From a virus (taxonomy: Duplodnaviria; Heunggongvirae; Uroviricota; Caudoviricetes), in the IMG/VR virus record IMGVR_UViG_2541047916_000002: a DNA stretch of 24,000 nucleotides. One strand, given 5' to 3'. The translations under genes were made by a program, and so were the position numbers. Each line of letters begins with the position of its first letter. The first letter of the stretch is position 1. Below, in pieces: positions 1,255-18,519 of this stretch. The notes below the pieces were generated by a model that did not search any database, was not told the DNA's origin, and saw only the letters and a list, made by a program, of their open reading frames with translations.

Positions 1255-1258
1255 ATAA

Positions 1259-1327: not shown

Positions 1328-1368
1328 TTGTCCACCGTGATTCACGTTCGTGAACATGTCCTTTCAGG

Positions 1369-1558: not shown

Positions 1559-1607
1559 GGGGGTACTTATGGGGGTATTTGCTGTTCGGTTTAGTGGAGG
1601 TACCCCC
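1559..1607. promoter_or_regulatory. putative integrase arm-type sites: GGGGGTA direct repeats (1559-1565, 1571-1577) and an inverted copy TACCCCC (1601-1607) between attL core and int
   Basis: Repeats read directly; the same GGGGGTA pair recurs at 22460-22478 on the island side of the right-end core. Confidence 0.3.
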
Positions 1608-1609
1608 AA

Positions 1610-2824
1610 GTGAAACTCAATGCCCGTCAAATAGACACAGCCAAGCCAAAAGAGAAGGCTTACAAGCTGGCCGATGGTGGCGGTTTGTATCTCTTGGTAA
1701 AACCTAATGGAGGTAAATACTGGCGACTTAAATATCGTGTAGCTGGTAAAGAGAAGCTATTGGCACTAGGTGTGTATCCTGAGGTTACTCTAGCCGATGC
1801 TCGGGCAAAACGTGAAGATGCGAAAAGAGGTATCGCTGGTGGTATCGATCCGATGGAAGCGAAACGAGAGGAAAAGATTGCCCGGGAAACGCAGTTAAAC
1901 AACACCTTCAAAGATATTGCCCTTGAGTGGCACAGCAGCAAATTAAAAAAATGGTCTGCTGGTTATGCTTCAGACATCCTCGAAGCCTTCAACAAAGATG
2001 TGTTCCCTTACATTGGCAAAAAACCAATCGCCGAAATCAAACCACTTGAACTTCTGAATGTGCTGCGGCGCATCGAGGGGCGCGGTGCGACAGAAAAAGC
2101 CAAAAAAGTGAGGCAGCGGTGCGGGGAAGTTTTCCGCTATGCAATAGTCACTGGTCGCGCAGAGTATAACCCTGCACCAGACCTTACTAGCGCGATGCAA
2201 GGCCATGAATCTAATCATTACCCTTTCCTTACGACCAAAGAATTACCTGATTTTTTCAAGGCATTGTCCAGTTACTCAGGAAGCGCATTGGTTGTTATGG
2301 CGGCTCGTCTACTGATTATCACCGGCTTGCGAACTGGCGAACTACGTGGCGCATTATGGGATGAAATTGATTTCAACAAGGCTATATGGGAGATACCCGC
2401 TTCACGTATGAAAATGCGGCGGCCTCATATTGTGCCATTGTCTGAGCAGGCTCTTTCGCTTATTGGGAAGATTAGAGAAATAACAGGCAATTACCCTCTT
2501 ATGTTTCCCGGGCGCAATGATCCAAGGAAAACAATGAGTGAGGCCAGCATAAACCAAGTGTTTAAGCGCATTGGCTACGCTGGACGTGTAACTGGTCATG
2601 GGTTCCGACACACTATGAGCACGATTTTGCATGAGCAGGGCTATAACACCGCGTGGATAGAAACGCAGCTCGCTCACGTTGATAAGAACTCAATTCGTGG
2701 CACATACAACCATGCGCAATATCTGGATGGACGGCGGGAGATGCTTCAATGGTATGCCGACTATATGGATTCTCTCGAGCATGGCGGAAATGTGGTGCAT
2801 ATGGTGTTTGAAAAACACGCATGA
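1610..2824 (+). CDS. tyrosine recombinase/integrase, P4 type (GTG start)
   Basis: 404-aa ORF next to the tRNA; the arm-binding N-terminus and catalytic C-terminus (RHTMST...HxxR...Y region) are typical of P4-like integrases. Confidence 0.85.
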   Translation: MKLNARQIDTAKPKEKAYKLADGGGLYLLVKPNGGKYWRLKYRVAGKEKLLALGVYPEVTLADARAKREDAKRGIAGGIDPMEAKREEKIARETQLNNTFKDIALEWHSSKLKKWSAGYASDILEAFNKDVFPYIGKKPIAEIKPLELLNVLRRIEGRGATEKAKKVRQRCGEVFRYAIVTGRAEYNPAPDLTSAMQGHESNHYPFLTTKELPDFFKALSSYSGSALVVMAARLLIITGLRTGELRGALWDEIDFNKAIWEIPASRMKMRRPHIVPLSEQALSLIGKIREITGNYPLMFPGRNDPRKTMSEASINQVFKRIGYAGRVTGHGFRHTMSTILHEQGYNTAWIETQLAHVDKNSIRGTYNHAQYLDGRREMLQWYADYMDSLEHGGNVVHMVFEKHA

Positions 2825-2910
2825 AACAACTGGACAAGTATACAGAGGTTTACTAAAGTATAGGGGAGTAGATTGATAAAAACTCACAGAGGATTGCTAT
2901 TTAACAGTTA

Positions 2911-2939
2911 GCCCTGGAGAAGGGCAATCGCTCTTTTAT
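2911..2939 (+). terminator. possible weak intrinsic terminator after int (GCCCT-GGAGA-AGGGC hairpin, then CTCTTTTAT)
   Basis: 5-bp stem hairpin with a T-rich tract 7 nt downstream; weak. Confidence 0.25.
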
Positions 2940-3251
2940 AAACGAAGGTGTATTGAGCCTTCTACGCTGCTGAAAAGCGGAATGTTCTTTAACAGGCTTT
3001 GGCGCTGACAAAGCGCAATTGTTCTTTAAAACTACTGGATGTCACGCCTAATAGCGTGATCCTGCCGAAATGCAGGGTAGCTCTACCCTTGTGGAGCAAA
3101 CAAACCAAAACAATCTGACTATCTTTTATAAAAGACCGCAATATGTTTTTCATATTGTGGTCTTTGGCGTATTCGACATTTGACGCAAATAAAACTCTCG
3201 CCATTCGTTGCAGGAGGGGGTTATTGCGTCATTAGTACAGGATATTAATAA

Positions 3252-3455
3252 ATGGCTAATTACAATTCATTAATTCGTCTCTCTGAAGTTCAAAGGCGAA
3301 CTGGTTATAGCAAAGCATGGATTTATCGTCTTATTAGTCAGGGGAGGTTCCCTAAACAGGTAAAAATTGGAAGTCGGGCAATTGCTTTTGTTGAGTCTGA
3401 AATAGATGAATGGATTGAGAAGTGTATATTAGAATCTAGAGACGAGGTGGCCTGA
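3252..3455 (+). CDS. alpA: AlpA/Vis-family DNA-binding regulator (prophage excision/transcription regulator)
   Basis: 67-aa protein with the AlpA-type HTH (LIRLSEVQRRTGYSKAWIYRLISQGRFP); sits just downstream of int as in P4-like elements. Confidence 0.8.
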   Translation: MANYNSLIRLSEVQRRTGYSKAWIYRLISQGRFPKQVKIGSRAIAFVESEIDEWIEKCILESRDEVA

Positions 3456-3886
3456 TGGAAAAGAAAAACCGCCCATTACAGGCGGCTAATTCAGATATTC
3501 GCGTATCTGATATTACGCCCCTTACAAAATCCCTTCAAGCACCAAAGCGCACACCGAAAAAGCATCGTGCCCGAGTCTATATGCTGCGTACTGGTATAGA
3601 GGGATGGACAGAAAATGACATTCTTCGCTACTGCCGTCTGTCTTCTGGTCGTAACTATGCAACAGAGTTAGAACGCCAGCTTGGAATCACTCTGGAGCGT
3701 ATCGACGAAAAGAATCCTGATGGTATCGGAACACACCTTCGCTACCGTTTCTCCTGCCGTGGTGATGTTCTGAAAGTGATCACTCATGTTAACCATCTTG
3801 CGAACATAAATGATCACAACGGACTTTCTCAGCAGGAAATTGCCGACATTCTGAAACTCTACCCGAACGCGTTTAACGCCGCCTAA
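3455..3886 (+). CDS. hypothetical protein (143 aa), basic N-terminus
   Basis: ORF with ATGA overlap onto alpA (translational coupling); no recognisable motif. Confidence 0.5.
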   Translation: MEKKNRPLQAANSDIRVSDITPLTKSLQAPKRTPKKHRARVYMLRTGIEGWTENDILRYCRLSSGRNYATELERQLGITLERIDEKNPDGIGTHLRYRFSCRGDVLKVITHVNHLANINDHNGLSQQEIADILKLYPNAFNAA

Positions 3887-3898
3887 CGGAGACTGAAA

Positions 3899-4732
3899 AT
3901 GAACATCGAAAAAAGCAGATTAATTTCTGAGGCCGCCCCTCATCTGAACGCCTCTCTGGGCACAATTAACGGTAATGAATTTGCCGCAATTGTCCCGGTT
4001 ATTCCTGGTCATATCGGTGGGCGTGAAACCAATATTGTTAGCGCAAAAGCGTTACACAAAGCGTTGGGCGTGGGAAAAGACTTCTCTACATGGATCACTG
4101 ATCGCATCTCTGAATATGACTTCACCATTGGGCACGATTACTCAGTCCATAAAACAATTTCCCCAAATTTGGGGAAAAGCCCGAATGGCGCGGCTTACAG
4201 CAAGATAAAGCACTCTGGCAGACCCGGCAAAGACTATCTGTTAAGTGTCGGAATGGCGAAAGAACTGGCAATGATCGAACGCAATGATCAGGGTCGCGCT
4301 ATCCGCCGTTATTTCATCCAGTGCGAGGAAGAATTACAGCGTAGCGTTCCTGAAATCGCCGCCCGCTATCGTCGCCAGCTAAAAGCCCGTCTCAGTGCCG
4401 CAAACAACTTTAAGCCAATGTGCGATGCGCTGAATATGGCCCGTGCCGAGATGGGTAAAACGACGCAGCAACACCACTACACAAACGAGAGCAATATGAT
4501 TTCTCGTATCGTTCTTGGTGGGCTAACTGCTAAGCAGTGGGCGCGGATAAATGGCTATTCTGGCGAACCTCGCGACCATATGAACGCAGAACAGCTTGAG
4601 CACCTCTCATATCTCGAAAGCACCAATATCACGTTAATTGATATGGGCATGGAATATGAGCAGCGCAAAGGAGAACTCACCCGCCTGTCGCAACGCTGGC
4701 TCGCCAAGCGTCTGGAGGCGCTCAATGTCTAA
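3899..4732 (+). CDS. AntA-domain phage anti-repressor-like protein
   Basis: N-terminal motif SAKALHKALGVGKDFSTWITDRI...YDFTIGHDY resembles the AntA/AntB anti-repressor domain; 277-aa ORF preceded by GGAGA. Confidence 0.55.
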   Translation: MNIEKSRLISEAAPHLNASLGTINGNEFAAIVPVIPGHIGGRETNIVSAKALHKALGVGKDFSTWITDRISEYDFTIGHDYSVHKTISPNLGKSPNGAAYSKIKHSGRPGKDYLLSVGMAKELAMIERNDQGRAIRRYFIQCEEELQRSVPEIAARYRRQLKARLSAANNFKPMCDALNMARAEMGKTTQQHHYTNESNMISRIVLGGLTAKQWARINGYSGEPRDHMNAEQLEHLSYLESTNITLIDMGMEYEQRKGELTRLSQRWLAKRLEALNV

Positions 4733-4904
4733 GCCAACAGGAACACCACAACCACAAAAACGCTACAAAGATGCCCACGGAGCACTCGTTACTGTCGAAA
4801 GCGTGTCTCACAACCGAGTGAGGTTTTATCGCGACGGGTATCAATCGCCATGCGTACAACCGCTGGCGCGTTTCATGAAGGAGTTCGCGGAGGTTAACCA
4901 ATGA
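4725..4904 (+). CDS. small hypothetical protein (59 aa)
   Basis: GGAGG 7 nt upstream of the ATG; 8-nt overlap with the stop of the preceding gene. Confidence 0.4.
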   Translation: MSKPTGTPQPQKRYKDAHGALVTVESVSHNRVRFYRDGYQSPCVQPLARFMKEFAEVNQ

Positions 4905-5302
4905 TACCCGTCCAGAAGAAGACATTTTCACTGGCTGGCATGTCGCCAAAATCCAGAAATATGACGGCAAAGTCAGGCATTAATACAGCAGATACAAGCA
5001 AAGTTTATCATTTGCTGGTGGTCGGAACGGATGCCTTAACCATACCAGAAATCTCGGGCGATGATATTAGCATTGAGAAGGTCAGCGGCTGCGCCAGAAA
5101 ATTTCTGGTCGTAGATGATGTCTTCCGCTCGTGTAGTGACTCCACAAAAACATTCGTCCACGCGCGTGACGTTAACGAAATGAGCGCGATGTACTGTGCT
5201 TCTGGTTCTTCCAATAGTGAGTTTTCGGAGTCCATAAAAAAGAGCTTGCCGTTATGCGGCAACACGGTTTATGGTTATAAGGCACCTCATAAAACGGGTG
5301 CC

Positions 5303-5531
5303 GGGTTTCGCAGCCCGGAAATGTACGAGGCGACACATGACGCGCCGAGCGTCTTTTTTTGTGCCGTTAGCCAGACTCACACTTTTTTCAGTGATGTGGT
5401 TATAATCCGCGTCGCTTGCAAAATTATGGTGGGCTGGACAGGGCAGCCGAAAGGCTGGCCGGTTTCCTTGTACGCCGGTACTGCGAACTCTGTTCAGTCC
5501 ACCACCAGCGAGTTTCGCAGCTCCGGTGGTG
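5303..5531 (+). promoter_or_regulatory. structured leader region: terminator, -10-like TTATAAT (5401-5407), GNRA-loop hairpin (5443-5456), three copies of a 16-nt motif (two direct, one inverted) and an 8-bp GC stem (5498-5505/5524-5531); possible P4-type RNA switch
   Basis: Motif GAGTTTCGCAGC(T)CCGG at 5303-5318 and 5509-5525; its near-complement CCGGTACTGCGAACTC at 5473-5488; all read directly. Confidence 0.3.
5339..5360 (+). terminator. intrinsic terminator-like hairpin GACGC-GCCGA-GCGTC followed by T7
   Basis: 5-bp GC stem plus seven T residues on the plus strand. Confidence 0.4.
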
Positions 5532-5562
5532 GGAAGAATTCCCAGTACAAGGAGGCTGCCAC

Positions 5563-5757
5563 ATGCTGGCTACTACCCCTACCCAAAAACCGCAATTTAT
5601 CTGGATTATCGCCGCAGTTCGCCGCGATTGCCCGACAATTACCGCCAAAATTCATCATATTGCTGCCGAGTCTGAACGCGATGCTCGCCGTTCTCTGGTG
5701 CGCGATCACGTCTGCTTTTTTGCTGGTCGTATCCGCATGGAGGTGGCACATGATTAA
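5563..5757 (+). CDS. small hypothetical protein (64 aa)
   Basis: Strong SD AAGGAGG 7 nt upstream of the ATG; first gene after the structured leader; lies in a different frame from the long 4901-5968 ORF, so assignment is ambiguous. Confidence 0.4.
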   Translation: MLATTPTQKPQFIWIIAAVRRDCPTITAKIHHIAAESERDARRSLVRDHVCFFAGRIRMEVAHD

Positions 5758-5968
5758 AACCTACGATGTGCATATGGATCCCCTCGAACGCACAAGCCAG
5801 ATCATCACACTGACAGAAGTGATTAACGACATTCTGGTGAGCAACTCTCCCTCACGAGACGAAAGACTGAAGGCGTTACTCGCGATATTGGATCTCGCCG
5901 TTCGTGACGTTCATTTCCTGCTGGAAGGTGGCGAAATGCCAGGAAAAACGGGGGCAACCAATGAATAA
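5750..5968 (+). CDS. small hypothetical protein (72 aa)
   Basis: GGAGGTG SD; 8-nt overlap with the preceding gene. Confidence 0.4.
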   Translation: MIKTYDVHMDPLERTSQIITLTEVINDILVSNSPSRDERLKALLAILDLAVRDVHFLLEGGEMPGKTGATNE

Positions 5969-6155
5969 CTCAATTAATGCCCCTCGACTTACGTCCGCAC
6001 TTCAATTAATCGAGCAAGCAGCGGCTGTCCTGGTTGCTGTCAGTCTTTCGGCTGAAGAAATGGACGCTGCTGATGTCGTGGATGCGATTAAAGCGTGCTC
6101 ATCTTTGGTTAACGATGCTCGTGCAGAGCTGGTAATTCTTGGTGGTGAAAAATGA
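5961..6155 (+). CDS. small hypothetical protein (64 aa)
   Basis: ATG overlaps the upstream stop (ATGAATAA); Ala-rich helical protein. Confidence 0.45.
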   Translation: MNNSINAPRLTSALQLIEQAAAVLVAVSLSAEEMDAADVVDAIKACSSLVNDARAELVILGGEK

Positions 6156-6415
6156 ATATCAACTTAATTTATCGTCATCCGTGTGAGCTGGAAATTGAAT
6201 CATTGCTGAGCCGTGAAGAGCCATATCCAGACACATTCACTCTTGCAGATCGCACGACTGAACGGCTTACCAGAGCGCGCACAGGTCTGGTTCATGTGAT
6301 GAATGAGATTCTTCCATCGGTGGGAGGGGAACAGGCGACAGTAATCACTAGCTGGCTACAAAAAGTTACCTCTCTGATAGATATCAGTTTAATCGATGCG
6401 GAGAGTGCGAAATGA
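6152..6415 (+). CDS. small hypothetical protein (87 aa)
   Basis: ATGA overlap with the upstream gene; ORF track. Confidence 0.5.
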   Translation: MNINLIYRHPCELEIESLLSREEPYPDTFTLADRTTERLTRARTGLVHVMNEILPSVGGEQATVITSWLQKVTSLIDISLIDAESAK

Positions 6416-6633
6416 CCAACATCCAGCTCATTGAAGCACAATGTCGCATCGAACAGGTTCAGACTGTTTTAGGGTTCTGGCTTGAAGGGGCCAGCCCCAG
6501 CAACAGAGACAAGTTAATGATTGGCGCGGTTATGTCACTGCTCAATGGCGTACCAGAAGCTATTCAGGAAGCAGACGAATTGTTGGGCAAATATGAGTTA
6601 CAGAATCATTCAGGCGAGGCGAAACATGAATAA
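6412..6633 (+). CDS. small hypothetical protein (73 aa)
   Basis: ATGA overlap with the upstream gene; ORF track. Confidence 0.5.
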   Translation: MTNIQLIEAQCRIEQVQTVLGFWLEGASPSNRDKLMIGAVMSLLNGVPEAIQEADELLGKYELQNHSGEAKHE

Positions 6634-7228
6634 TTTCTTAACTTTCCATGCAGAAGCAACGCCTGACGGCGTAAACATCATGTACCGCAGCAACGATGGC
6701 ATGACAGAACGCGTTGAGGCCGTCTCATATATTGATGCCGTAAATCGTCTGGATGCCGGGGATTATGACGATAAACCAGATGAAGGTATGTCAATACATC
6801 TCGCTATAGCCGATGGCGGCAACCAGGGATATTTCGATTACACATCACAGCATAACGTCATTATGTGGAGATGGCTGATCGCAACAGTATTCATGCTGGA
6901 AATGAGAGAGGAAAACGGCACTGTCAGCATCATTGATGATACTGGCAATCCTTCCGAAGTGGCTGTTTATTCCAACGGCATCGTCGCCATGCCGCTGTAT
7001 CCAGTAGCAGAGCGCCTCGCTATGGCAAACAACATTGAGGGCGCGATGATAGAACGTTTTGGCATCGAGTCTGGCACAGAACGCGCCATCATTTTCTACA
7101 GAGCCATGATGGATGTGGAACAAGGAGCACTGACTCCATTTGGTCGTGAAACGCTTGCTGAACTTCACAACAGCTTTATAGCTGAACTGAATGAAAACGG
7201 CATGCCAGCGGAACCAGTGACGCACTGA
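6626..7228 (+). CDS. hypothetical protein (about 200 aa; start chosen at internal ATG 6626)
   Basis: GAGG SD before ATG 6626; the longer ORF from 6521 would overlap the previous gene extensively. Confidence 0.5.
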   Translation: MNNFLTFHAEATPDGVNIMYRSNDGMTERVEAVSYIDAVNRLDAGDYDDKPDEGMSIHLAIADGGNQGYFDYTSQHNVIMWRWLIATVFMLEMREENGTVSIIDDTGNPSEVAVYSNGIVAMPLYPVAERLAMANNIEGAMIERFGIESGTERAIIFYRAMMDVEQGALTPFGRETLAELHNSFIAELNENGMPAEPVTH

Positions 7229-7238
7229 GGATGGAACC

Positions 7239-7580
7239 ATGATTACTAAAAATTTCCGACTGAATGCGCTGGCAAATAAGTATGCGTCGGCACTGTATAA
7301 CCACATTACCTCCACCAGCGGCGGGGACTATTTCATGGTTGATGCGGACGGCGAGGCCGTCCGTGTGGAAATCGTCAATGGAGTAAAAGGCGTTCGCAGC
7401 CTGATCGATAGCTACACACTGGCAGCCATGAAAGTGTTCTACCCGCAGTGGGAAACCGTGGGGATCGAGCTTCTTGATCGTTGCGTCACTAAGGACGGAT
7501 TGACTGACGTCGGGCGTGAGATATGGCAAAGCATGGTTAATGACATGGGCGCAACTGTAGCGGGAGGTTCTCATGCGTGA
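7239..7580 (+). CDS. hypothetical protein (113 aa)
   Basis: GAGGA SD; ORF track. Confidence 0.5.
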   Translation: MITKNFRLNALANKYASALYNHITSTSGGDYFMVDADGEAVRVEIVNGVKGVRSLIDSYTLAAMKVFYPQWETVGIELLDRCVTKDGLTDVGREIWQSMVNDMGATVAGGSHA

Positions 7581-7944
7581 AAATGCAGAAATGGCGCTTA
7601 GCTCCGCAATCGGAGAGCAGGTGGCAAAGATTGCTGGTGCTGTGTGGATTCATAACCTTCATTCTACTGGTGAAGAGAAAATGGCAATTCAGACGCCAGA
7701 GGGACGCACCATTACTACATCTCTGAAGCCGTCAGATGTTTGTGATCTGATTTGCGCATTCATGTACCCAGCAATGAGGACTGCCCACGGCGATAAGTGG
7801 AAACTTGCGACAACCGCTGAATTTGATATGTGGCTAAACAATGATGGCATGCTGACTGATTACGGAATAACCAAGTGGCAGATGCTGGTTAGCCATATCG
7901 CAAACGCTATAGACCACGTGGGGTACGGTGATGCGAAACATTGA
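7573..7944 (+). CDS. hypothetical protein (123 aa)
   Basis: GGGAGG SD; overlaps the upstream stop. Confidence 0.5.
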   Translation: MRENAEMALSSAIGEQVAKIAGAVWIHNLHSTGEEKMAIQTPEGRTITTSLKPSDVCDLICAFMYPAMRTAHGDKWKLATTAEFDMWLNNDGMLTDYGITKWQMLVSHIANAIDHVGYGDAKH

Positions 7945-10423
7945 TCTTATCCGTCAGGTTATCAGTGCGTCTGAAAACAACTGGCCTCATGTGCTGGGCT
8001 GCCTGAACATAAATGTCCCTGACTCTCCGCGCCGTCATGCTCCCTGCCCTGCATGTGGGGGCAAAGATCGATTCCGGTTCGATGACAACGGGCGCGGTAG
8101 CTTCATCTGTAATCAGTGCGGCGCTGGTGATGGGCTGGATTTAATTAAACGCGTAAATAACTGCGACACAACAGAGGCGGCGCTTCTTGCCGCTGATGTT
8201 CTGGGTATTGATTACCGGACAACGGAAACACCAGAAGCCACCAGCCAGAAACGGGAACAACTGGAAACCGAGCGCCAGCGACGCGAACAGGAGCGCCTGA
8301 AAAGGGCAGAGAAGGACGAACAACAAAGACGGGATACGTTTTCCCGTCAGTTTGATGACATGCGCAGAAAGGCTGTAAACGGCAAATCTGATTATCTGGT
8401 TGCGAAAGGGGTAGGTGATTTTACATTCCCCGTGTTGCCCGATGGATCTCTGTTGCTGGCGCTGGTGGATAAATCCGGCGCAGTAACAGCAGCACAGACT
8501 ATTACCTCACATGGTGAAAAAAGACTCCTGACAGGTTCAGCAAAGCGGGGGGCATATCACGCCATAAACGCACCAGAAACAACACAGAGCATCTTAATCG
8601 CAGAAGGGCTGGCAACGGCATTATCTGCCCATTTAATTCGTCCAGAGGCGCTGACAGTGGCGGCGATTGATGCCGGGAACCTGTTATATGTCGCCCAGGT
8701 ACTGCGGGATAAATTTCCTTCAGCACAAATCATCATTGCTGCGGATAACGACCACAGCGAAGGAAGACAAAACACGGGGAGAATAGCAGCAGAAAAAGCA
8801 GCTTTATCTGTTTCTGGATGGGTGGCATTACCCCCGACAGATCACAAAGCAGACTGGAATGATTACCACCAAAAACACGGCATTAAATGCGCCACAGAAG
8901 CGTTCAATAAGTCAATGTACCAACCACAGGGTAATGGCGTGAAACAGGAGCCACAGACCATTGAGGGAAGCGATTTTAAGGTTATGGATACCGACCCACT
9001 GAAACCAAGAATAGAAAGCCGCGAGGATGGTATTTATTGGGTATCTCCGAGAGCTGACAGCCAGAGTGGAGAAATCATCAATAACGAAAGCTGGTTATGT
9101 TCTCCGTTAAGCGTTATCGGTACTGGCAGAGACGATAAAGACCAGTATCTCATTCTTCGCTGGCTGTCGTTTGGTTCTGAAACGCCGACAACCGCTGCCA
9201 TTCCACTGGCTGATATTGGTGAACGTGAAGGATGGCGCACACTTAAAGCTGGTGGGGTAAATGTCACGACCAAAAGCAGCCTCAGAGCAATACTGGCAGA
9301 CTGGCTACAACGCAGTGGCTCTCGTGAATTGTGGCGTGTTGCTCATGCCACTGGCTGGCAATGCGGAGCGTACATCATGCCTGATGGGGAAATCATCGGA
9401 ACACCTGAAAATCCTGTGCTGTTCAGCGGGAGAAGCTCAGCCGCAGCCGGATATACCGTCTTAGGGAGCGCGAAAAGCTGGCGTGATAACGTGGCGCGTC
9501 TGGCCTTTGGTAACTATTCAATGATGACCGGGATCGGCGCAGCACTGGCAGCGCCATTGATTGGGCTGGTGGGCGCTGACGGGTTCGGCATTCATTTCTA
9601 TGAGCAGTCGAGCGCAGGTAAGACCACCACGGCAAACGTGGCGAGCAGCTTATACGGCAACCCTGATTTACTGCGGCTGACGTGGTACGGAACCGCGCTG
9701 GGGCTGGCAAATGAGGCCGCCGCCCACAATGACGGACTAATGCCGCTTGATGAAGTTGGTCAGGGCGCTGATCCTGTCAGCGTTTCACAGTCTGCCTATG
9801 CGTTATTTAACGGTGTAGGGAAACTGCAAGGCGCTAAAGATGGTGGAAACCGGGATCTAAAACGTTGGCGTACAGTGGCAATCAGCACCGGAGAAATGGA
9901 TTTAGAAACATTTATCGCTACTTCCGGGCGAAAAACCAAAGCCGGGCAACTGGTGCGACTGCTGAATATTCCGTTGAGTAAAGCAGTACGCTTTCACGAT
10001 TACCAGAACGGAAAACAGCACGCAGACGCACTGAAAGACGCTTACCAGCATCACCACGGCGCGTCCGGGCGTGAGTGGATTAAATGGCTGGCAGACCACC
10101 AGCAACAGGCTATTAAAACCGTTCGTGATTGCGAAAGCAGATGGAGAAGCCTGATCCCATCCGATTATGGTGAGCAGGTTCACCGTGTAGCCGCGCGATT
10201 TGCCATTCTGGAGGCCGCATTGTTGTTAGGCGAGGTTGTAACAGGCTGGGATGCTCAGACATGCCGTGATGCGATACAGCACAGCTATAACGCATGGTTG
10301 CGCGAGTTCGGCACAGGTAACAAAGAGCATCAGCAGATTATTGAACAAACGGAGGCATTTCTTAATGCCTATGGGCTTAGCCGTTTTGCACCATTTCCAT
10401 ACAGCCCGGCAGATTTGCCCATC
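7928..10423 (+). pseudogene. P4 alpha-like primase-helicase, N-terminal 832 codons, interrupted by an IS21-family insertion (the last two codons of the 833-aa ORF, 10424-10429, are IS-derived)
   Basis: Primase zinc ribbon (CPACGGKDRFRFDDNGRGSFICNQCGAGDG), Toprim (IAEG ... AADNDH), P-loop (SSAGKTT); the reading frame continues in frame at 12841 once the IS and one TSD copy are removed. Confidence 0.75.
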
Positions 10424-10488
10424 TATTAGACGTCAACTAGTTTTGCCGACTCGCGCCAACTATACTGGCCGCACCCTTCAGTGCGACA

Positions 10489-11244
10489 TCAAGTCGCGCT
10501 TGTTACTGCCTTCGCTGTCTTTTTCCTGTAGCTTTCACCTTTCAGTTCGAACATATATCCGTGATGGATCAGCCGGTCTGCCGCCGCCACCGCCATAGTC
10601 TCATCCACGAAGATGCTGCCCCACATGCTGAACGGATGGTTACTGGTTATCACCAGGCTCCCACGTTCATAGCGATGCGCTATTAACTCGAACAGTACTC
10701 CCGTTTCGGCGCTGTCGCGTTTGACATAGCCAAGATCATCCACCACTATCACCCGGTAGCGATCCAGTTTCAGTAGCAGCTCATTCAGTTTCAACTGCGC
10801 TCTGGCTTTACGTAGTTCCTGCAACAACTCTCCTGCGCTGTAGAACCGGGCCCGGTAGCCCTGGCCTACTACGCCATCCACGATCGCTGCCGCCAGATGG
10901 CTTTTCCCCAACCCGCTGGCTCCGAACAGCAGAACGTTTTCTCCTGCATCAACCCAGTCTGTCGTTTCACAGAGTTGCCGGAACTGAGCTCCATTCAGTT
11001 CCGGCACCTGACTGAAGTCGTATTCGCTTAGCGTTTTGGCAACTGGCAACCGGGCCTCCTTTTTATAACGACGCAGTTTTTCACTCTCGCGCCACAGGAG
11101 TTCTTCATTGCATAGCGTCAGAAGATAGCGCGATGGTGTCCAGCCTTCTGCCAGTGCTCGTTTTTCCAGAGCGTGCCATTCAGCTCCAACTCGTGTCAGG
11201 CGTAGTTTACGCAGGCTGCGTTCAAGGTGATGGATATTGCTCAC
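10489..11244 (-). CDS. istB: IS21-family ATP-binding helper IstB
   Basis: 251-aa ORF with Walker A GASGLGKSHLA; typical IstB size and position. Confidence 0.85.
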   Translation of the reverse strand: MSNIHHLERSLRKLRLTRVGAEWHALEKRALAEGWTPSRYLLTLCNEELLWRESEKLRRYKKEARLPVAKTLSEYDFSQVPELNGAQFRQLCETTDWVDAGENVLLFGASGLGKSHLAAAIVDGVVGQGYRARFYSAGELLQELRKARAQLKLNELLLKLDRYRVIVVDDLGYVKRDSAETGVLFELIAHRYERGSLVITSNHPFSMWGSIFVDETMAVAAADRLIHHGYMFELKGESYRKKTAKAVTSAT

Positions 11245-12740
11245 TGCGAACCTCCCTTGCCACGCAGTAGTTGCTCATAACTGCTCAGGTTATGCTGTTT
11301 CACATTGACTACCGGCAACGCCTTTTCCTTTATACCCAGGAAGCGCATCAGCCGGTGCAGATCCACGTTTCCCGGGGTATTCAGCATCTGCTCCATACCT
11401 TTTGCCACGACTGAGATATCGTCGTATCCTGCAGCCAGTTTCAGAGCATGTACCATCAGCCTGCCTGCCATGTCGGGTTCCAGATGATTACATAAGCGAC
11501 GCCACAGCCTCCGCCATTCATCGTCTGGCAGGATGTCATTTCTCAGCGTTGCATGGCAGAACGCACCGGGCTTTTTTGCCAGACTGTCGATCACATGTCG
11601 GAAGTCGATACGACGGGCCCGCGTCTTCCCTTTTTCTGGTCTGACACGTGGGCAGCTCATGACCTCGCTGCTGCCAACGTAACAGCTCAGACGATCGTCC
11701 CATAACCGGACCCGTAACAGTTGACCTACAAGCCGGGAAGGTACGCTGTAGACGACGTGCTTCACATTGATGGTACTGCTGCGGCTAACCCTCACAGTCA
11801 GCTCATCATAGTCAGCACTGCGACGAAGCGGCAGCGGTTTCAGATGAAGACGTTCTTCCTTGACCAGATCCTGATTGTTACGGTTGTGCCGCATAACCTG
11901 CTGAGTGATGAAGGCCTGATATTCTTCTATGGTGCTGAAGTCGTTACTGCCCCGCAGTATCAGCGCCTGACAGATACGCCTTTTCAGATGTCCGTGGGCA
12001 CTTTCAACCGAGCCATTTTCGTGGCCCCGACCGGCATTATTGTGTACGCCCTGCATTCCGTAGTGCTGACAGAGAGCAGCATAACGCTCAGTCAGCTCGC
12101 GGCGTCCATCTTCGCCCTGTTGTTTCCATGCTGCCCTCAGGCTGTCCGTTTTATGTTCTACCGGCACTCCGCCCAGTTGTCCGAGGGCTTCCTGCAGACC
12201 TTCAGCCAGAGCAGAGAAGCTCTCACCACCCAGCACAACCCGCATCCAGCTCCAGTGGCTCCATTCCAGACGGAAGTGATACAACTTATGCGCCAACAAC
12301 TTACCGGCGATGGTGACAACTACACCTTTCAGTTCAGTAAAGTCCGACAGACCTCGCAGACCGGGCTGATGTCGCTGGCGGAACATGACCTCCTGCTCTG
12401 CACCATACTGTAGCTTCCATTCGCGGACCCGCCGTTGCATTGTTCTTCGAAGGCTGTTGGGGTACTGGCCGGGATATTTATCCTGTAGCATCTCCAGCAG
12501 AGTTGTTGGTGTCAGAGCCGGCCTCTCTTTCAACAGAGGAACAAGCATGCTGTCCCACACAGCTTCCAGAGGATCTTTGCGTGTGCGCCAGTGCCGAACA
12601 CTGTTTTTTGCCCACTCTCCTTTTTCGATCCGACGACCAGAACGGACTGAGATACCAGCCTTCATGGCCGAGATATGCTGAGTTATACCTTTCTTACGCT
12701 GAGTCATATAGTAACTGACCTGAGAAGTATTGAGCGTCAC
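11241..12740 (-). CDS. istA: IS21-family transposase IstA
   Basis: 499-aa ORF with N-terminal HTH and a DDE-type core; 4-nt overlap with the downstream istB. Confidence 0.85.
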   Translation of the reverse strand: MTLNTSQVSYYMTQRKKGITQHISAMKAGISVRSGRRIEKGEWAKNSVRHWRTRKDPLEAVWDSMLVPLLKERPALTPTTLLEMLQDKYPGQYPNSLRRTMQRRVREWKLQYGAEQEVMFRQRHQPGLRGLSDFTELKGVVVTIAGKLLAHKLYHFRLEWSHWSWMRVVLGGESFSALAEGLQEALGQLGGVPVEHKTDSLRAAWKQQGEDGRRELTERYAALCQHYGMQGVHNNAGRGHENGSVESAHGHLKRRICQALILRGSNDFSTIEEYQAFITQQVMRHNRNNQDLVKEERLHLKPLPLRRSADYDELTVRVSRSSTINVKHVVYSVPSRLVGQLLRVRLWDDRLSCYVGSSEVMSCPRVRPEKGKTRARRIDFRHVIDSLAKKPGAFCHATLRNDILPDDEWRRLWRRLCNHLEPDMAGRLMVHALKLAAGYDDISVVAKGMEQMLNTPGNVDLHRLMRFLGIKEKALPVVNVKQHNLSSYEQLLRGKGGSQ

Positions 12741-12840
12741 GCCATTTCCTGTTGGATCATGTAAATGACACTCAGGTTACAAAACCGGCCAGAATAATCG
12801 GCGCCAGGCGGACTGAGTTATTGTCGTCTCATAGCCCATC

Positions 12841-13104
12841 AAAGATTTAGCCGGATACCGTCAGCGTGGAGAACATGACGAAAGCCCAATGATTTTCTAC
12901 ACATTCCCGGCCACATTTGAAAAGGAGATCGCATGTGGTTTCAACGCAAAACAGTTTGCTGAAGTGTTGAAAAAAGCCGGGATGCTAACCCCACCAAACA
13001 GCGGTCGTGGATACCAAAGAAAATCACCACGTATTCAGGGACGACAAATAAACGTTTATGTACTCAATTACCAGCCAGGAGATTATAACTCATCTGAAGA
13101 ATGA
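12841..13104 (+). pseudogene. C-terminal 87 codons of the IS-disrupted primase-helicase
   Basis: Open and in frame with the primase ORF across the restored junction (10423 joined to 12841); the ORF-track entry 12889-13104 is its ATG-started tail. Confidence 0.55.
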
Positions 13105-13129: not shown

Positions 13130-13240
13130 GTTGGTTCAGTTGGTTCAGTTGGTTCAATTTGTAAAGAGTATTGTTTTATAAGGATTTTATTCTTTTTATT
13201 GAACCAACACTGAACCAACAACACGGTATTTTGAACCAAC
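13130..13240. repeat. iteron cluster, putative island replication origin: 3x GTTGGTTCA, 43-bp AT-rich spacer, 3x TGAACCAAC
   Basis: Six 9-mers read directly, immediately downstream of the primase gene, as in P4/PICI-type ori arrangements. Confidence 0.55.
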
Positions 13241-13866: not shown

Positions 13867-14328
13867 ATGGAACTAAAATTTATTGATAACCCTGTGCGAT
13901 TACAGGCCTTTCTTAACGAGCCAGGCAATACCGAAAATATTGTTGAGCCGGGGCACACGTACTACATCAAGCCTGATGCGGTATATCTCGGCATCTACGA
14001 AGGATTAGTGCTGGCTGGCGTTCATGAAGTGCGTAACTTCTGGCATAGCGTTGTTGAATGCCATGCGGTGTACGACCCCGGATTCCGTGGTGAATATGCA
14101 CTGCAAGGGCATCGATTATTCTGCAAATGGCTTCTCGAAAACTCACCATTCCTTAACAGCATTACCATGGTTCCTGACACCACCAAATACGGACGGGCAA
14201 TTATCCGTTTGCTTGGCGCTACCCGTGTTGGTCACCTTGATGATGCTTATATCAGATGTGGTAAACCCGTCGGCGTAACGCTTTATCAGTTAACTCGGCA
14301 ACAATATAAGGAATTCAGCGAATGTTAA
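13867..14328 (+). CDS. hypothetical protein (153 aa), first gene of a virion-protein-like module (position equivalent to P22 gene 14)
   Basis: ORF translationally coupled to the next gene; no motif recognised. Confidence 0.45.
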   Translation: MELKFIDNPVRLQAFLNEPGNTENIVEPGHTYYIKPDAVYLGIYEGLVLAGVHEVRNFWHSVVECHAVYDPGFRGEYALQGHRLFCKWLLENSPFLNSITMVPDTTKYGRAIIRLLGATRVGHLDDAYIRCGKPVGVTLYQLTRQQYKEFSEC

Positions 14329-14975
14329 TTACCCACATAGCTCATAAACATCTCAATCGTGCCGTATACGAAAAAGGCGGTGATGGTGGTGCCTCTAAAG
14401 CTCAGGCGAAGGCCCAGCAGCAGGCAATTGATTTGCAGCGCGAGCAGTGGAATACGGTGATGAATAATCTCAAGCCGTATGCAGAAGTCGGATTGCCTGC
14501 TTTACAACAACTACAAGGACTGATGACTCTGGAAGGGCAGAATAAAGCCGCGAATGATTTCTTTGGTTCTGGTTTATATAAAACACAGGCAGATCAGGCC
14601 CGTTATCAGAACCTTGTCTCAGCAGAAGCTACCGGGGGGCTTGGCTCAACAGCTACCAGTAACCAGTTATCTTCCATTGCGCCCATGCTTTATAACAATT
14701 GGCTTAGTGGGCAAATGCAAAATTATGGAAACCTGCTAAATGTCGGGATGAATGCGGCATCAGGGCAGGCAACAGCAGGGCAACTCTTGCAGGGGCTTGG
14801 CGCTATTCGTGCAGGTCAGGCGCAGCAGCCATCCAGTCTTGCGCGTGGTATTGGTGGGGCGGCATCAGGCGCTTTAGCGGGTGCGCAACTTGGTTCCGTT
14901 GTTCCGGGTATAGGTAATGTCGCCGGGGCTATTGGTGGTGGGCTTATTGGTCTTGTTGGGGGGCTTGGATTCTAA
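14322..14975 (+). CDS. ejection-protein-like, P22 gp7-type (217 aa) with Gly-rich hydrophobic C-terminus
   Basis: Size, Q/A-rich composition, C-terminal glycine-zipper-like segment and gene order (217/473/701 aa versus P22 gp7/gp20/gp16 at roughly 229/471/609 aa); homology not verified. Confidence 0.45.
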   Translation: MLITHIAHKHLNRAVYEKGGDGGASKAQAKAQQQAIDLQREQWNTVMNNLKPYAEVGLPALQQLQGLMTLEGQNKAANDFFGSGLYKTQADQARYQNLVSAEATGGLGSTATSNQLSSIAPMLYNNWLSGQMQNYGNLLNVGMNAASGQATAGQLLQGLGAIRAGQAQQPSSLARGIGGAASGALAGAQLGSVVPGIGNVAGAIGGGLIGLVGGLGF

Positions 14976-16396
14976 TGGCGACATGGCAACTTGGCGGGCT
15001 GCCTAGCATGGCACCGCAAAATGATAATGCTCCTCGTTCTTCCGTTCCTCAGCCTGTGCAGTATCAGCAGCAGCCAAACGTAGGTTTAATGGCGCTACAG
15101 GGGCTAAGAGGCGTTGCTGAGATTAATCAGCAGGCACGTCAACAACAGCGTAAAGCAGAGTTTCAGAAAGCATATGCCGGGGCTTTTGAGTCTGGAGACA
15201 GAAACAAAATGCGCAGTCTTATTTCTGAGTATCCAGAAGAATTTGAAAGCGTTCAGAAAGGGATGGGCTTTATTGATGACGACCAGAGAAATTCTATTGG
15301 TCATCTTGCGACTAGTGCTCAAATCGCATCTTCGCTCGGAACTGGGGCATTTGGAAAATTCATAGCAGATAACGAAGATGAAATGCGTCGCTTGGGAATT
15401 TCTCCTGAGTCTGTTGCCGAAATGCATGTTAATGATCCACAGGGATTCCAGCGGCTTGCTGGTAGTATGGCACTGTTTTCTCTCGGTCATGAGAAGTATT
15501 TCGATATCAAAGATCAAATGGAAGGTCGGGATATTGAGCGTGGCAAGTTGGCAGAAACAATCCGCAGCAATCAGGCTGGCGAAGCACTTCAGGCGAGAGG
15601 GCAGGATATTAGCCGAGCAAATGCGTTAACGTCAGCATATGCACCAACAGCAGCAATGCAGAATTACAATCAGTACGCTCAAATGTTAAAGGCGGATCCA
15701 GAGGGGGCGGCGGCATTTGCGGCAGCGGCTGGAATTAATACAAACGCCAAAAAATTAATGAGTGTTAGAGAAAACGATGATGGCACTGTCACAAAATACT
15801 ACACAGACGGAAGTGAAGAGCAGGGAAAACTAAACCAGCCAATATCTGGAGATGGGTTTCGTCCAATAGCTTTGCCAACAGCCCAAAAGATCATGGAAAA
15901 GTCGCCAGAAGGGGCTAAAAAAGCTGCTGGATTTGCATACAGGGTTAGGGATGCTCTTGATTCAATAGATACACTGAAAGACCAGCTTAGCCCACAGCGA
16001 GTGGCGATCATTAATAATGCTTTGGGTAATGGGACGCTGGCTAACTTAACGCTCAGCCCAATAGAGCAGCAATACGTTGTTAATGCTAATGACGCAATAA
16101 TGGCAATACTCCGTCAGGAAACAGGGGCATCTATCCTACCAGCTGAAATGTCCAAATATTATCAAATGTATTTCCCTCAGCCTGGTGATTCCACAAAAAC
16201 CATTGATACCAAGCGCCGGAAGATGGAAAACCAGTTCAATTCGCTGAAAGCTGCTTCTGGTCGAGCTTATGATGCTTTGCGGGTTATTTCAGCAGTTGAC
16301 AGAGGAACTTCTTCTTCGTCGCAGACATTGCCGCAATCTGAGCAGGTATCACAGCCAGCAGCCAGCAGTAATTTTTCTTCACTATGGGGTGATTAA
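14975..16396 (+). CDS. ejection-protein-like, P22 gp20-type (473 aa)
   Basis: TAATG coupling to the upstream gene; Q/A-rich low-complexity protein of matching size and order. Confidence 0.45.
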   Translation: MATWQLGGLPSMAPQNDNAPRSSVPQPVQYQQQPNVGLMALQGLRGVAEINQQARQQQRKAEFQKAYAGAFESGDRNKMRSLISEYPEEFESVQKGMGFIDDDQRNSIGHLATSAQIASSLGTGAFGKFIADNEDEMRRLGISPESVAEMHVNDPQGFQRLAGSMALFSLGHEKYFDIKDQMEGRDIERGKLAETIRSNQAGEALQARGQDISRANALTSAYAPTAAMQNYNQYAQMLKADPEGAAAFAAAAGINTNAKKLMSVRENDDGTVTKYYTDGSEEQGKLNQPISGDGFRPIALPTAQKIMEKSPEGAKKAAGFAYRVRDALDSIDTLKDQLSPQRVAIINNALGNGTLANLTLSPIEQQYVVNANDAIMAILRQETGASILPAEMSKYYQMYFPQPGDSTKTIDTKRRKMENQFNSLKAASGRAYDALRVISAVDRGTSSSSQTLPQSEQVSQPAASSNFSSLWGD

Positions 16397-18501
16397 TGGC
16401 TAAAGCATGGAAAGATGTTATCGCTTCTCCACAGTATCAGGCGTTAGCACCAGAACAAAAAGCGCAGGCTCAAGAGCAATACTTCAATGAAGTCGTGGCC
16501 CCGCAAGCCGGAGAAAGTGTAGAGCAGGCTAAGCAGGCTTTTTATGCTGCCTATCCACTACCATCAACGAATGAAATAGACCGATCCCAATCAGCAACTC
16601 AAAATATTCAACATACATCATCTGATAATTCTCTTGCGTCAGGGTATGCAAAGTTAGCTACTCAGCAAAGAGAGGGGCTTGAGCGTTCAGCAGAACAGGG
16701 AGCCAGTCTTGGGGCTGCGATGCGCGATGCTATAACAGGCGAAAGCCGAATGACTCCAGAGATGGAGAGACTGCAAAATGTCGCCTCTGCCCCAGAATTG
16801 AACTCACTAAGCATGGATGCCCTAAAGGCTGGATGGTCTCAACTTTTCGGCTCTGACGCGTCTCAGGAAAAGATTCTTCAGGGAATGGGGGCGACATTAA
16901 GGCAGGATGAGAAGGGGAATACTATCGTTTCTCTGCCATCAGGTGATTATGCCCTGAACAAGCCGGGTTTATCACCGCAAGACCTGACTTCGTTTCTTGC
17001 TAATGCGTTGGCGTTTACACCAGCGGGCAGGGCTGGAACGGTGCTTGGTGCCATAGGAAAATCAGCAGCTACAGATTTAGCACTACAGGGAGCCACCAGC
17101 CTTGCTGGTGGAGAAGATATTGATCCGTTACAAACGGTAATTTCTGCTGGCATTGGTGGTATTGGTAAGGGGCTGGAAAATACAGCGAGTGCGGTTTCGA
17201 GGGCTGTTCGTGGTGATATGTCGCCTGAAGCAAAGGCTGCTGTCGACTTTGCATCGGAAAGAAATCTGCCGTTAATGACCAGTGACATGCTGAAAGATAA
17301 AACCTTTATGCAGAGTCAGGCTCAGACATTAGGCGAAAGAGTTCCTTTTTTTGGAACCGGTAAGAATCGGCTGAATCAACAACAAGCACGAGAAAATTTA
17401 GTCAGAACATTTAGCGATGGTCTGGGTGGCATTTCTGATAAACAGCTTTATGAATCTGCGACTAAAGGGCAACAAAAATTCATTGAGGCAGCAGGAAAGC
17501 GATATAACCGCATAATTGACGCTATGGGGGATACCCCTGTCGATCTCTCAAACACGGTAAAAGCTATCGACAATCAGATTGCCGTGTTAAGCCGCCCGGG
17601 CAAATCTCAGGATAGAGCCGCGGTAAAAGTCTTGCAGCAATTTAAAGACGATATCACCAGCGGACCAAATGACCTGCGTCTGGCGAGGGAAAACAGAACC
17701 GATCTTCGAAAGCGATTTATGGCGTCATCTGACACTGTTGATAAAGATACGCTCCAGAAAGCCAGCGATATTATCTACAAGGCATATACGGCGGATATGA
17801 AAAAAGCCGTAGCCAAAAATCTTGGAGCAGACGAAGCCATTAATATGGCAAGGGTTGATCGCTCATGGTCTAAATTCAATGACATGATGGGAAGAACGCG
17901 CGTTCAAAAGGCAATAGCCAGCGGCAAGGCCACGCCTGAGGATGTAACAAAACTCGTTTTTAGCCAAAGCCCATCAGAACGTTCTCAGCTTTACAGGCTT
18001 CTGGATGACAATGGTAGGCAAAACGCACGAGCGGCCATAGTTCAGAATGCTGTAGATAAGGCGACTGATCCGTCTGGAAATATCAGTGTTGAGAAGTTTA
18101 TTAATGCGTTACACCGGAACAGGAAGCAATCAGCAACTTTCTTTAAAGGCGTACATGGAAAGGAACTGGACGGCGTTATTAAATACCTCAACGATACAAG
18201 ACACGCGGCAAAAGCGAACGTTCAAAACTTAAATGGTCAGCAGCTTTATGGATTGTTAGTTGGTGGTGGCATCATAAACGCAGCAGTATTAGCGGGGATG
18301 CTAAAAACGGCTGCGTTTGTTGTTCCTGCTGCTGGTGCCGTAGGCGGAGCAGCGAAGGCATACGAAAGCCCTGTTATACGAAATGCCTTGTTACGTCTGG
18401 CAAATACGCCAAAAGGTAGCACAGCATATGACAGAGCGATCAGTACGGTCACACAATCGCTCACCAGAGTCGCACAGGCATCACAAAAAGAAGCTCAATA
18501 A
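16396..18501 (+). CDS. ejection-protein-like, P22 gp16-type (701 aa)
   Basis: TAATG coupling; hydrophobic Gly/Ala-rich C-terminal segment; position and size. Confidence 0.45.
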   Translation: MAKAWKDVIASPQYQALAPEQKAQAQEQYFNEVVAPQAGESVEQAKQAFYAAYPLPSTNEIDRSQSATQNIQHTSSDNSLASGYAKLATQQREGLERSAEQGASLGAAMRDAITGESRMTPEMERLQNVASAPELNSLSMDALKAGWSQLFGSDASQEKILQGMGATLRQDEKGNTIVSLPSGDYALNKPGLSPQDLTSFLANALAFTPAGRAGTVLGAIGKSAATDLALQGATSLAGGEDIDPLQTVISAGIGGIGKGLENTASAVSRAVRGDMSPEAKAAVDFASERNLPLMTSDMLKDKTFMQSQAQTLGERVPFFGTGKNRLNQQQARENLVRTFSDGLGGISDKQLYESATKGQQKFIEAAGKRYNRIIDAMGDTPVDLSNTVKAIDNQIAVLSRPGKSQDRAAVKVLQQFKDDITSGPNDLRLARENRTDLRKRFMASSDTVDKDTLQKASDIIYKAYTADMKKAVAKNLGADEAINMARVDRSWSKFNDMMGRTRVQKAIASGKATPEDVTKLVFSQSPSERSQLYRLLDDNGRQNARAAIVQNAVDKATDPSGNISVEKFINALHRNRKQSATFFKGVHGKELDGVIKYLNDTRHAAKANVQNLNGQQLYGLLVGGGIINAAVLAGMLKTAAFVVPAAGAVGGAAKAYESPVIRNALLRLANTPKGSTAYDRAISTVTQSLTRVAQASQKEAQ

Positions 18502-18519
18502 CTGGTTAGCCACGGATGG

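Follow-up and report, generated by a model that had tools for sequence, protein, structure and literature searches.

The window, as we call the whole 24,000-nt stretch of DNA analysed here, carries a phage-inducible chromosomal island (PICI) that begins at the tRNA gene thrW and whose primase-helicase (pri-rep) gene is split towards its 3' end by an insertion sequence (IS). The features on which our analysis rests are the following:

1369-3455, + strand: left end of the host island, with tRNA-Thr, integrase and alpA in the order found in EcCIMP1 of E. coli MP1
1369-1444, + strand: tRNA-Thr (thrW), island left end
1610-2824, + strand: integrase (int), island left end
3252-3455, + strand: alpA (PF05930, E 7e-20)
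7931-10423, + strand: primase-helicase gene, 5' part, encoding residues 1-831 when counted from the ATG at 7931 (alternative GTG start at 7928)
10417-10423, unstranded: left copy of the target-site duplication GCCCATC, read from the sequence; single copy in the empty site of ABU 83972
10424-12833, - strand: ISEc10 (IS21 family, 2410 bp), running against the direction of the primase gene
10424-10471, unstranded: istB-proximal arm of the terminal inverted repeat, from a repeat search
10489-11244, - strand: istB, helper AAA+ ATPase, 251 aa (NCBIfam NF038214, IS21_help_AAA, 267 bits, cut-off 200)
11241-12740, - strand: istA, IS21-family DDE transposase, 499 aa (NCBIfam NF033546, transpos_IS21, 227 bits, cut-off 160)
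12786-12833, unstranded: istA-proximal arm of the terminal inverted repeat, from a repeat search
12834-12840, unstranded: right copy of GCCCATC, read from the sequence; single copy in the empty site of ABU 83972
12841-13104, + strand: 3' end of the primase-helicase gene, orphaned by the IS and comprising residues 832-918 and the stop, a conserved C-terminal module and putative iteron-recognition domain
13130-13240, unstranded: first iteron cluster of the replication origin, from an iteron search with a shuffle control
21568-21688, unstranded: second iteron cluster, which repeats the first in inverted orientation, directly upstream of perC

The original prediction, an IS21-family element within a primase-helicase gene, was borne out by the profile matches of istA and istB; istB also matches Pfam IstB_IS21 (PF01695, E 9.5e-62), the end of istA overlaps istB by 4 nt, and RefSeq annotates istA as WP_000174402.1. 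The inserted block begins with TATTAGACG and ends with CGTCTCATA, and its terminal pair (10423-10471 / 12786-12834), predicted as imperfect inverted repeats of about 45 bp, proved to be 49 nt long, 71% complementary and the longest inverted repeat that the repeat search returned in the region, its arms sitting exactly at the ends of the block common to other ISEc10 copies. Copies labelled ISEc10 by RefSeq, in CFT073, 118UI and several plasmids, match the element at 100% identity over its full 2410 bp, and we take the name from this label; the inserted element is thus ISEc10, an already known IS. It is no different here from the ISEc10 of CFT073 and many plasmids, which has the same termini, the same 4-nt overlap of istA and istB and a short target duplication, and what is new is the insertion site only. 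Seven other copies that we examined end exactly as this one does, each within its own direct repeat, which measures 6 bp in six of them and 4 bp in the seventh, as against 7 bp here; target duplications of the IS21 family range from 4 to 8 bp. We also considered a target-site preference, since the CFT073 copy at 4,922,071 seemed to have 19 nt of flank in common with the window's site, and rejected it: that flank shares only GCAnATTTGnC, the seven other flanks have no common motif, and we treat the resemblance as a coincidence.

Within the interrupted gene, the open reading frame runs for one codon (Tyr) into the IS and then reaches a stop (TAG, 10427-10429), giving a product of 832 residues, namely residues 1-831 and the one IS-encoded Tyr. 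Deleting the IS had been expected to restore a frame of roughly 919 codons, and joining 10423 to 12841 in silico does exactly that: a single open frame results, 919 codons long if read from the GTG at 7928 and 918 aa if read from the ATG at 7931, with the predicted 87 further codons and a stop at 13102-13104, and the rejoined primase-helicase agrees at 100% identity with the uninterrupted gene of E. coli ABU 83972. GCCCATC had been noticed at both junctions as a duplication of 5-7 bp; we put its length at a perfect 7 bp because the rejoined 1200 bp match ABU 83972, where the target is single-copy, at 100% identity without a gap. The proposal that the insertion is recent is also supported: the IS and its other copies are 100% identical, the two GCCCATC copies agree perfectly, identity to an uninterrupted strain is 99.99% and 99.92% in the flanks, and the junction between IS and primase was found in 0 of 5,426 complete E. 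coli genomes. The uninterrupted site is present in 363 complete genomes, and the exact truncated protein occurs only in the draft assembly GCA_000460815.1, the DNA of which matches the window at 100% identity.

The host island is an EcCIMP1-like PICI at thrW. All island genes up to the primase lie on the + strand, and directly behind the pri-rep gene comes an origin in which an AT-rich region is flanked by two iteron sets, an arrangement that has been defined as a PICI feature (PMC6092414). EcCIMP1 is the PICI of E. coli MP1 that is mobilised by the P22-like phage Kapi1; it is reported to excise in MP1 on helper induction and to be transferred by the helper phage (Pick, Stadel and Raivio 2025, PMC11773190). 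It occupies the same site, between proA/thrW and the marR-vat island, and has the same gene order (int, alpA, antirepressor, ash, primase, ori, DUF2824, gp7-like and ejection genes, perC); its DNA is 99.0% identical to the window from 108 to 10423, and its primase differs from the window's at 5 of 918 residues, being intact in MP1, where ISEc10 is absent. A PICI is expected to lack phage structural and lysis genes. The window's island carries homologues of the P22 ejection proteins gp7 and gp20 as well as DUF2824, and EcCIMP1, which carries them too, is nevertheless classed by its authors as a PICI (PMC11773190). The two islands differ from about 15135 to 21560 of the window, a part largely unrelated to EcCIMP1, with another gp16-like gene and other minus-strand ORFs. 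The original prediction had recognised neither ISEc10 nor the EcCIMP1-type PICI.

We found that the truncated protein keeps a zinc ribbon, a TOPRIM primase and a DUF927 (MCM-like, SaPI-Rep-like) helicase core and lacks only the last 87 residues. Pfam placed Zn_Ribbon_Prim at residues 35-70, Toprim_3 at 222-319 and DUF927 at 366-644, these three being its only matches, with none to a P4/D5-type helicase domain. The NCBIfam Cch1 model scored 36 bits, far under its equivalog cut-off of 700, and we therefore regard the window's protein as a relative and not an orthologue.

The lost tail is a conserved part of this protein. All 120 best homologues of the rejoined protein are 911-940 aa long and are covered at 99-100%, tail included; among them none ends near residue 833, where the interrupted ORF, put at 833 aa in the original prediction, comes to its end. 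The 12841-13104 frame, taken to encode a primase-helicase C-terminus, does resemble one: searched on its own, the 87-aa tail hits phrog_1139, a phage DNA primase family, at positions 823-892 of 895 (E 5.9e-11). In every full-length representative match the tail is the extreme C-terminus, and it retains invariant residues across homologues of 29-59% identity; a free-standing full-length tail was not identified, the short matches looking like fragments. A second homologue search, seeded with a diverse alignment, returned the same close subfamily again with almost no added diversity. Of the structural models, the full-length AlphaFold prediction was unusable (pLDDT 43.7, from a 23-sequence alignment of homologues about 80% identical).

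Immediately downstream of the stop at 13104, where an iteron origin had been predicted, we found iterons from 13130 onwards. The first cluster holds six exact TGAACCAAC iterons, the first beginning 26 nt past the primase stop: three tandem GTTGGTTCA at 13130-13156, an AT-rich spacer of about 30% GC at 13157-13199, and three TGAACCAAC at 13200, 13211 and 13232, a count reached in 0 of 100 shuffles. This layout is as described for PICI and SaPI origins (PMC6092414; PMC9371898). The second cluster, 83% identical to the reverse complement of the first (mean column identity), is present in MP1 too, and in some relatives the two clusters directly adjoin each other.

We then compared tail and iterons across 47 full-length genes, that is, 46 related loci from other species and the window's gene, all 47 of which have 4-12 iterons within 350 nt past the stop. 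With the rest of the protein controlled for, pairwise tail identity is higher by 0.149 between genes of one iteron class, an effect reached in 0 of 2000 label permutations; because the sequences are related and label permutation ignores phylogeny, the better control is a sliding-window comparison, in which other 87-aa segments up to residue 783 gave only -0.07 to +0.015. Among these 47 genes the tail is the only protein region that co-varies with the downstream iteron class, and residues 891, 893 and 896, all three in the tail, alone separate TGAACCAAC-type from GAGACAAC-type proteins; the window's protein has R891, S893 and I896, where the GAGACAAC class has G, V and E. The tail thus appears to recognise the island's replication origin and, because only this lost tail tracks the iteron sequence, the truncated protein is most likely unable to do so.

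The replication proteins of the SaPIs offer the closest parallel. SaPI5 PriRep5 and SaPI Rep (PDB 8tch, 5dgk) are self-loading MCM-like initiator-helicases (PMC9371898), in which primase and helicase are fused as they are here, the gene is directly followed on its 3' side by the origin, whose AT-rich centre lies between opposed iteron sets, and a C-terminal module sets iteron recognition, a role that covariation suggests for the tail in our case. The helicase cores are homologous (residues 402-813 against 8tch, E 1.5e-11; against 5dgk, Cch, E 0.008). The primase part differs, being a zinc ribbon with TOPRIM in the window, and so do the iterons, which are 9-mers here and penta- or hexanucleotides in the SaPIs. 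SaPI Rep ends in a winged-helix domain for iteron recognition. For the window's tail we detected no solved structure of similar sequence: when its alignment was run as a profile against PDB sequences, only a chance match to Exonuclease V (E 0.8) came up, and a tail-only AlphaFold model from 23 more diverse sequences (pLDDT 56) gave no significant Foldseek match in the PDB (best E 0.86), the top hits being winged-helix DNA-binding domains. The alpha protein of phage P4 joins a zinc and TOPRIM primase to a helicase and ends in an origin-binding domain, and P4 has two separated, iteron-bearing cis regions, ori and crr. The window's gene, with its two iteron clusters, appears to share this design, a likeness that we draw partly from the discussion in PMC6092414, and departs from it in its helicase core, which is DUF927 where Pfam found no D5/P4-type SF3 domain; PICI Pri-Rep proteins are only distantly related to alpha (PMC6092414).

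We consider it very probable that a recent ISEc10 insertion removes the origin-reading tail of an EcCIMP1-type PICI pri-rep protein, with an expected defect in replication and transfer. ISEc10 would have transposed recently into codon 832 of the pri-rep gene at thrW; the tail would be the module that reads the TGAACCAAC iterons of the adjoining origin, and the tail-less protein should neither bind nor melt its own origin. By analogy with SaPI5 PriRep5, ATPase and helicase activity may also go: PriRep5 without its C-terminal domain (CTD) lost ori binding, ATPase and helicase activity in vitro, and the CTD truncation was also put into an in vivo replication assay (PMC9371898). The island would then be expected to have lost self-amplification on induction, with helper-phage transfer reduced by orders of magnitude; deletion of pri-rep in EcCICFT073 reduced transfer from ~1e5 to ~40-90 (PMC6092414). 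It is reasonable, on sequence and analogy, to regard the island as replication-defective unless complemented, a view that is strengthened by the covariation of iterons and tail together with the published phenotype of the PriRep5 C-terminal deletion. Complementation in trans could come from a compatible primase encoded outside the window, which spans 24 kb only.

That the island was already a non-functional remnant, and the insertion a neutral event in decaying DNA and not the cause of the defect, is possible rather than probable. We found no exact copy of the tRNA 3' end (attR) of 12 nt or more, and the degenerate attR-side copy at about 22540 lacks 11 nt of the tRNA 3' end; because this copy is incomplete, the island may already have been immobile before the IS arrived. 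RefSeq further annotates the ABU 83972 island with an internal stop in one gene and a partial gp16-like injection gene, and the right half is unlike that of the mobilisable EcCIMP1. Against such decay, however, the primase is intact in the closest relatives and 99.5% identical to that of the active EcCIMP1, the uninterrupted site is kept in those 363 complete genomes, and int, alpA, antirepressor, ash and origin are all intact. The remnant reading is compatible with the loss of the tail as we explain it, and alters only the consequence of the event, not its nature.

It is improbable that the insertion is real and has little effect on replication, the tail being dispensable or supplied separately. 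While the truncated protein does keep all recognisable catalytic domains, and an in-frame ATG at 12889 opens a 71-aa ORF (12889-13104) that covers most of the tail, every full-length homologue, even at 29% identity, has the conserved tail at its end, and the tail alone tracks iteron specificity; removal of the PriRep5 CTD, moreover, had the effects described above. Nor does separate supply look likely, given the missing free-standing full-length tail and a promoter and terminator scan around the IS, in which promoter-like sites were scarcer than in shuffled sequence and not one pointed outwards from the IS in the direction of 12889. It is very improbable that the products of the insertion act in trans, the tail-less primase-helicase, which could still form hexamers, or the 71-aa peptide poisoning the replication of incoming related satellites or occupying iterons; if so, the island would have become domesticated, no longer replicating but retaining the functions of AlpA, the antirepressor and PerC. 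Finally, an IS repeat misplaced in a draft short-read scaffold, with the gene intact in the organism, is extremely improbable: the sole source is indeed a draft scaffold (GCA_000460815.1 KE702040.1) and ISEc10 is multicopy in related strains (at up to 22 places per genome), but a perfect 7-bp duplication of a target present once in the empty site would not arise from a misplaced repeat, both junctions fall exactly on the IS ends known from the seven other copies, and the truncated protein is recorded in two contigs and two samples.

The insertion that removes the tail is real but ordinary, a strain-specific knock-out by a known IS in a known island type. In this strain it probably leaves one satellite island without self-replication, and hence without most phage-mediated transfer, which is relevant only to researchers on this lineage or to users of PICIs as tools. 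More useful is a by-product: in Enterobacterales and Betaproteobacteria alike, the last 87 residues of Pri-Rep (TOPRIM-DUF927) proteins follow the sequence of the iterons, and the three residues that distinguish two specificities provide a testable map of origin recognition in Gram-negative PICIs, for which the IS-bearing allele is a natural C-terminal deletion mutant.

The interrupted primase-helicase ORF (7928-10429) extends into the insertion sequence (IS) by a single codon (Tyr) before its stop. We found that in silico excision, joining 10423 to 12841, restored one frame of 919 codons from GTG, or 918 amino acids (aa) from the ATG that RefSeq takes as start, with 87 further codons beyond the junction and a stop at 13102-13104; the coordinates of the original prediction, a frame of about 919 codons running 87 codons to a stop at 13104, proved exact. 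With 600 bp of either flank, the excised site matched E. coli ABU 83972 without gaps (100% over 1200 bp), inside the gene for a 'TOPRIM and DUF927 domain-containing protein', and the rejoined protein is identical to WP_001244105.1 of that strain; at least 80% of the excised-site query was present in one piece in 363 complete genomes. The IS aside, the window is 99.99% identical to ABU 83972 over the left 10.4 kb and 99.92% over the right 11.2 kb. No complete genome searched carried at least 80% of a 500-bp probe across the IS/primase junction, and the exact truncated protein is recorded for two contigs only, the one returned belonging to a draft assembly (GCA_000460815.1) whose DNA is 100% identical to the window. 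Because the empty site is identical, the flanks are nearly so and the junction is absent from complete genomes, the insertion is a real, strain-specific and recent event, as its recency had been read from the sequence.

The original prediction of an IS21-family element with imperfect terminal inverted repeats and a GCCCATC target duplication at its junctions also held. GCCCATC is read at 10417-10423 and again at 12834-12840, and since the empty site of ABU 83972 has a single copy, the target duplication is 7 bp. A misassembly would not create such a duplication and is thus very unlikely as the source of the insertion. The 2410 bp between the copies (5' end TATTAGACG at 10424-10432, 3' end CGTCTCATA at 12825-12833) are 100% identical, over the full length, to RefSeq-annotated ISEc10 (IS21 family) in CFT073, 118UI and several plasmids, and ISEc10 is matched in 899 of 5,426 complete E. 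coli genomes. Seven other copies with flanks share the start and end bases of the window copy, and each is flanked by a separate direct repeat (six of 6 bp, one of 4 bp), which sets the boundaries at 10424 and 12833. The longest inverted repeat within 10300-13000 is the terminal pair 10423-10471/12786-12834 (49 nt, 71% complementary). ISEc10 has TA...TA termini in all eight copies compared, whereas TG...CA is typical of the IS21 family.

Features of ISEc10 and of the rejoined primase-helicase
Minus strand, 499-aa ORF, overlapping the 251-aa ORF by 4 nt: scores 227 bits with the NCBIfam IS21 transposase model, above its cut-off of 160
Minus strand, 251-aa ORF: scores 267 bits with the IS21 helper ATPase model, above its cut-off of 200, and matches Pfam IstB_IS21 (E 9.5e-62)
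Residues 35-70: primase zinc ribbon (Pfam)
Residues 222-319: TOPRIM (Pfam)
Residues 366-644: DUF927 (Pfam)

Over residues 402-813 the protein shows homology to a staphylococcal 'pathogenicity island protein' of known structure (8tch, E 1.5e-11) and a weaker relationship to the SCCmec Cch helicase (5dgk); all catalytic parts are encoded upstream of the insertion, which severs the last 87 residues (832-918, hereafter the tail). These belong to the protein: the best 120 homologues of the rejoined protein are all 911-940 aa long (coverage 99-100%), none ending near residue 833, and the tail alone, encoded at 12841-13104, matched the phage DNA primase family phrog_1139 over its final 70 positions (E 5.9e-11). 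Searched exhaustively against 1.8 billion representatives, the tail returned 38 proteins, and in the long ones (904-919, 711 and 606 aa) the match was always at the extreme C-terminus. In an alignment of seven homologues (29-59% identity), G836, Y837, F857, A871, G878, L880, G888, G898 and Y904 are invariant. Two observations that would have contradicted the original prediction, intact homologues ending with the 833-aa ORF and a tail unlike primase C-termini, were thus looked for and not found.

The iteron origin (13130-13240) does lie right after the restored stop, as had been proposed. Three tandem GTTGGTTCA begin 26 nt downstream, followed by about 43 bp of AT-rich DNA (30% GC) and three TGAACCAAC in opposite orientation, an iteron count reached in 0 of 100 shuffles. 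The layout is that of origins of phage-inducible chromosomal islands (PICIs) and SaPIs, which PMC6092414 and PMC9371898 describe as two iteron sets around an AT-rich region directly 3' of the initiator gene. A second cluster, also present in MP1, lies 8.4 kb downstream (21568-21688), shortly before perC; it repeats the origin in inverted orientation, with five exact TGAACCAAC and one with a mismatch (83% mean column identity), and the separated pair is reminiscent of P4 ori/crr. In Enterobacter adelaidei (L013) and similar relatives the clusters are contiguous, with 11 iterons over about 285 nt and then perC; in the window, an orf53-DUF2824-gp7-gp20 module stands between the origin halves.

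Structure prediction left the fold of the tail unsettled (pLDDT 44 for the full-length model; 56 for the tail, with two helices and then short strands), and Foldseek with the predicted tail gave no significant match, the best (E about 1) being winged-helix domains of YvoA, GabR and FadR; we therefore turned to comparative data. Scanning one genome per species gave 80 loci (L012-L091), and the full-length set comprised 47 genes, including the window's own. For each of the 47, an 8-mer recurs 4-12 times in the 350 nt that follow the stop (shuffles, mean 1.9, maximum 5; last 350 nt of the gene, maximum 3), and the iterons fall into 11 sequence classes. Arrays of at least 11 different sequences follow homologous primase-helicase genes across Enterobacterales, Neisseriales and Burkholderiales.

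We regressed pairwise tail identity on rest-of-protein identity and a shared-iteron-class term (1035 pairs among 46 genes, one near-identical locus left out). The class term for the tail was +0.149, reached by 0 of 2000 label permutations, a figure that is not a true probability because the sequences are related. The stronger control is to slide an 87-residue window along these sequences: at all other placements up to residue 783 the term was -0.07 to +0.015, and it rose only once the window entered the C-terminus. Only three of the 918 positions, 891, 893 and 896, all within the severed piece, fully discriminate between two groups of proteins, 24 of the TGAACCAAC type with R, S, I/V and seven of the GAGACAAC type with G, V/T, E/L. 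This comparative evidence points to the tail as an iteron-specificity module. Proteins of class A (TGAACCAAC) keep the tail motif GRGYQRKSPRI nearly unchanged, even at only 53% identity elsewhere in the protein.

The event itself is ordinary: in one strain, a known, active IS has inserted into a gene of an established kind of satellite; what is added is the comparative evidence on the tail and the identification of the island as EcCIMP1-like. SaPI5 PriRep5 is likewise a fused primase-helicase, its core homologous to the window protein; in the available text of PMC9371898, deleting its C-terminal domain abolished ori binding, ATPase and helicase activity, and the truncation was also taken through an in vivo replication assay. 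Deleting pri-rep from EcCICFT073 lowered transfer from about 1e5 to about 40-90 (PMC6092414). By analogy, the 832-aa product would be unable to initiate at the island's origin, and transfer of the island is expected to be poor; a compatible primase encoded at another locus of the genome could complement the defect. The island may also have been immobile already before the insertion, because two further genes of the island are marked defective by RefSeq in ABU 83972 and only an incomplete copy of the tRNA end is present on the attR side.

The host island has the gene arrangement and chromosomal site of EcCIMP1: proA, tRNA-Thr (thrW), P4-type integrase, alpA, AntA antirepressor, Ash-family gene, primase and origin, then DUF2824, P22 gp7-like, gp20-like, perC, integrase fragment and marR. 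EcCIMP1 is a PICI carried by E. coli MP1, and the P22-like phage Kapi1 both induces and transfers it (PMC11773190). The window and MP1 share 99.0% identity over 108-10423; the MP1 primase is intact, with five residues different, and the right halves of the two islands (about 15135-21560 in the window) differ for the most part. A 113-codon ORF (7239-7580) is a RefSeq pseudogene (internal stop) in ABU 83972 and an intact hypothetical protein in MP1. The sequence after thrW (1395-1948 vs. 22495-23040), including the first 112 integrase codons, recurs with 86% identity at 22552-23040, a repeat that marks where a second, decayed island (marR-vat) begins; the first island's attR looks damaged, since 11 nt of the tRNA 3' end are missing from the copy in the second island. 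At 13867-18501 the satellite carries homologues of the P22 DUF2824/gp14-like, gp7 and gp20 (Inj_translocase) ejection proteins, and a 701-aa ORF in the gp16 position has no Pfam match, its ABU 83972 counterpart being a RefSeq 'partial injection protein'. From about 15135 this ejection module is unrelated in sequence to the corresponding EcCIMP1 module.
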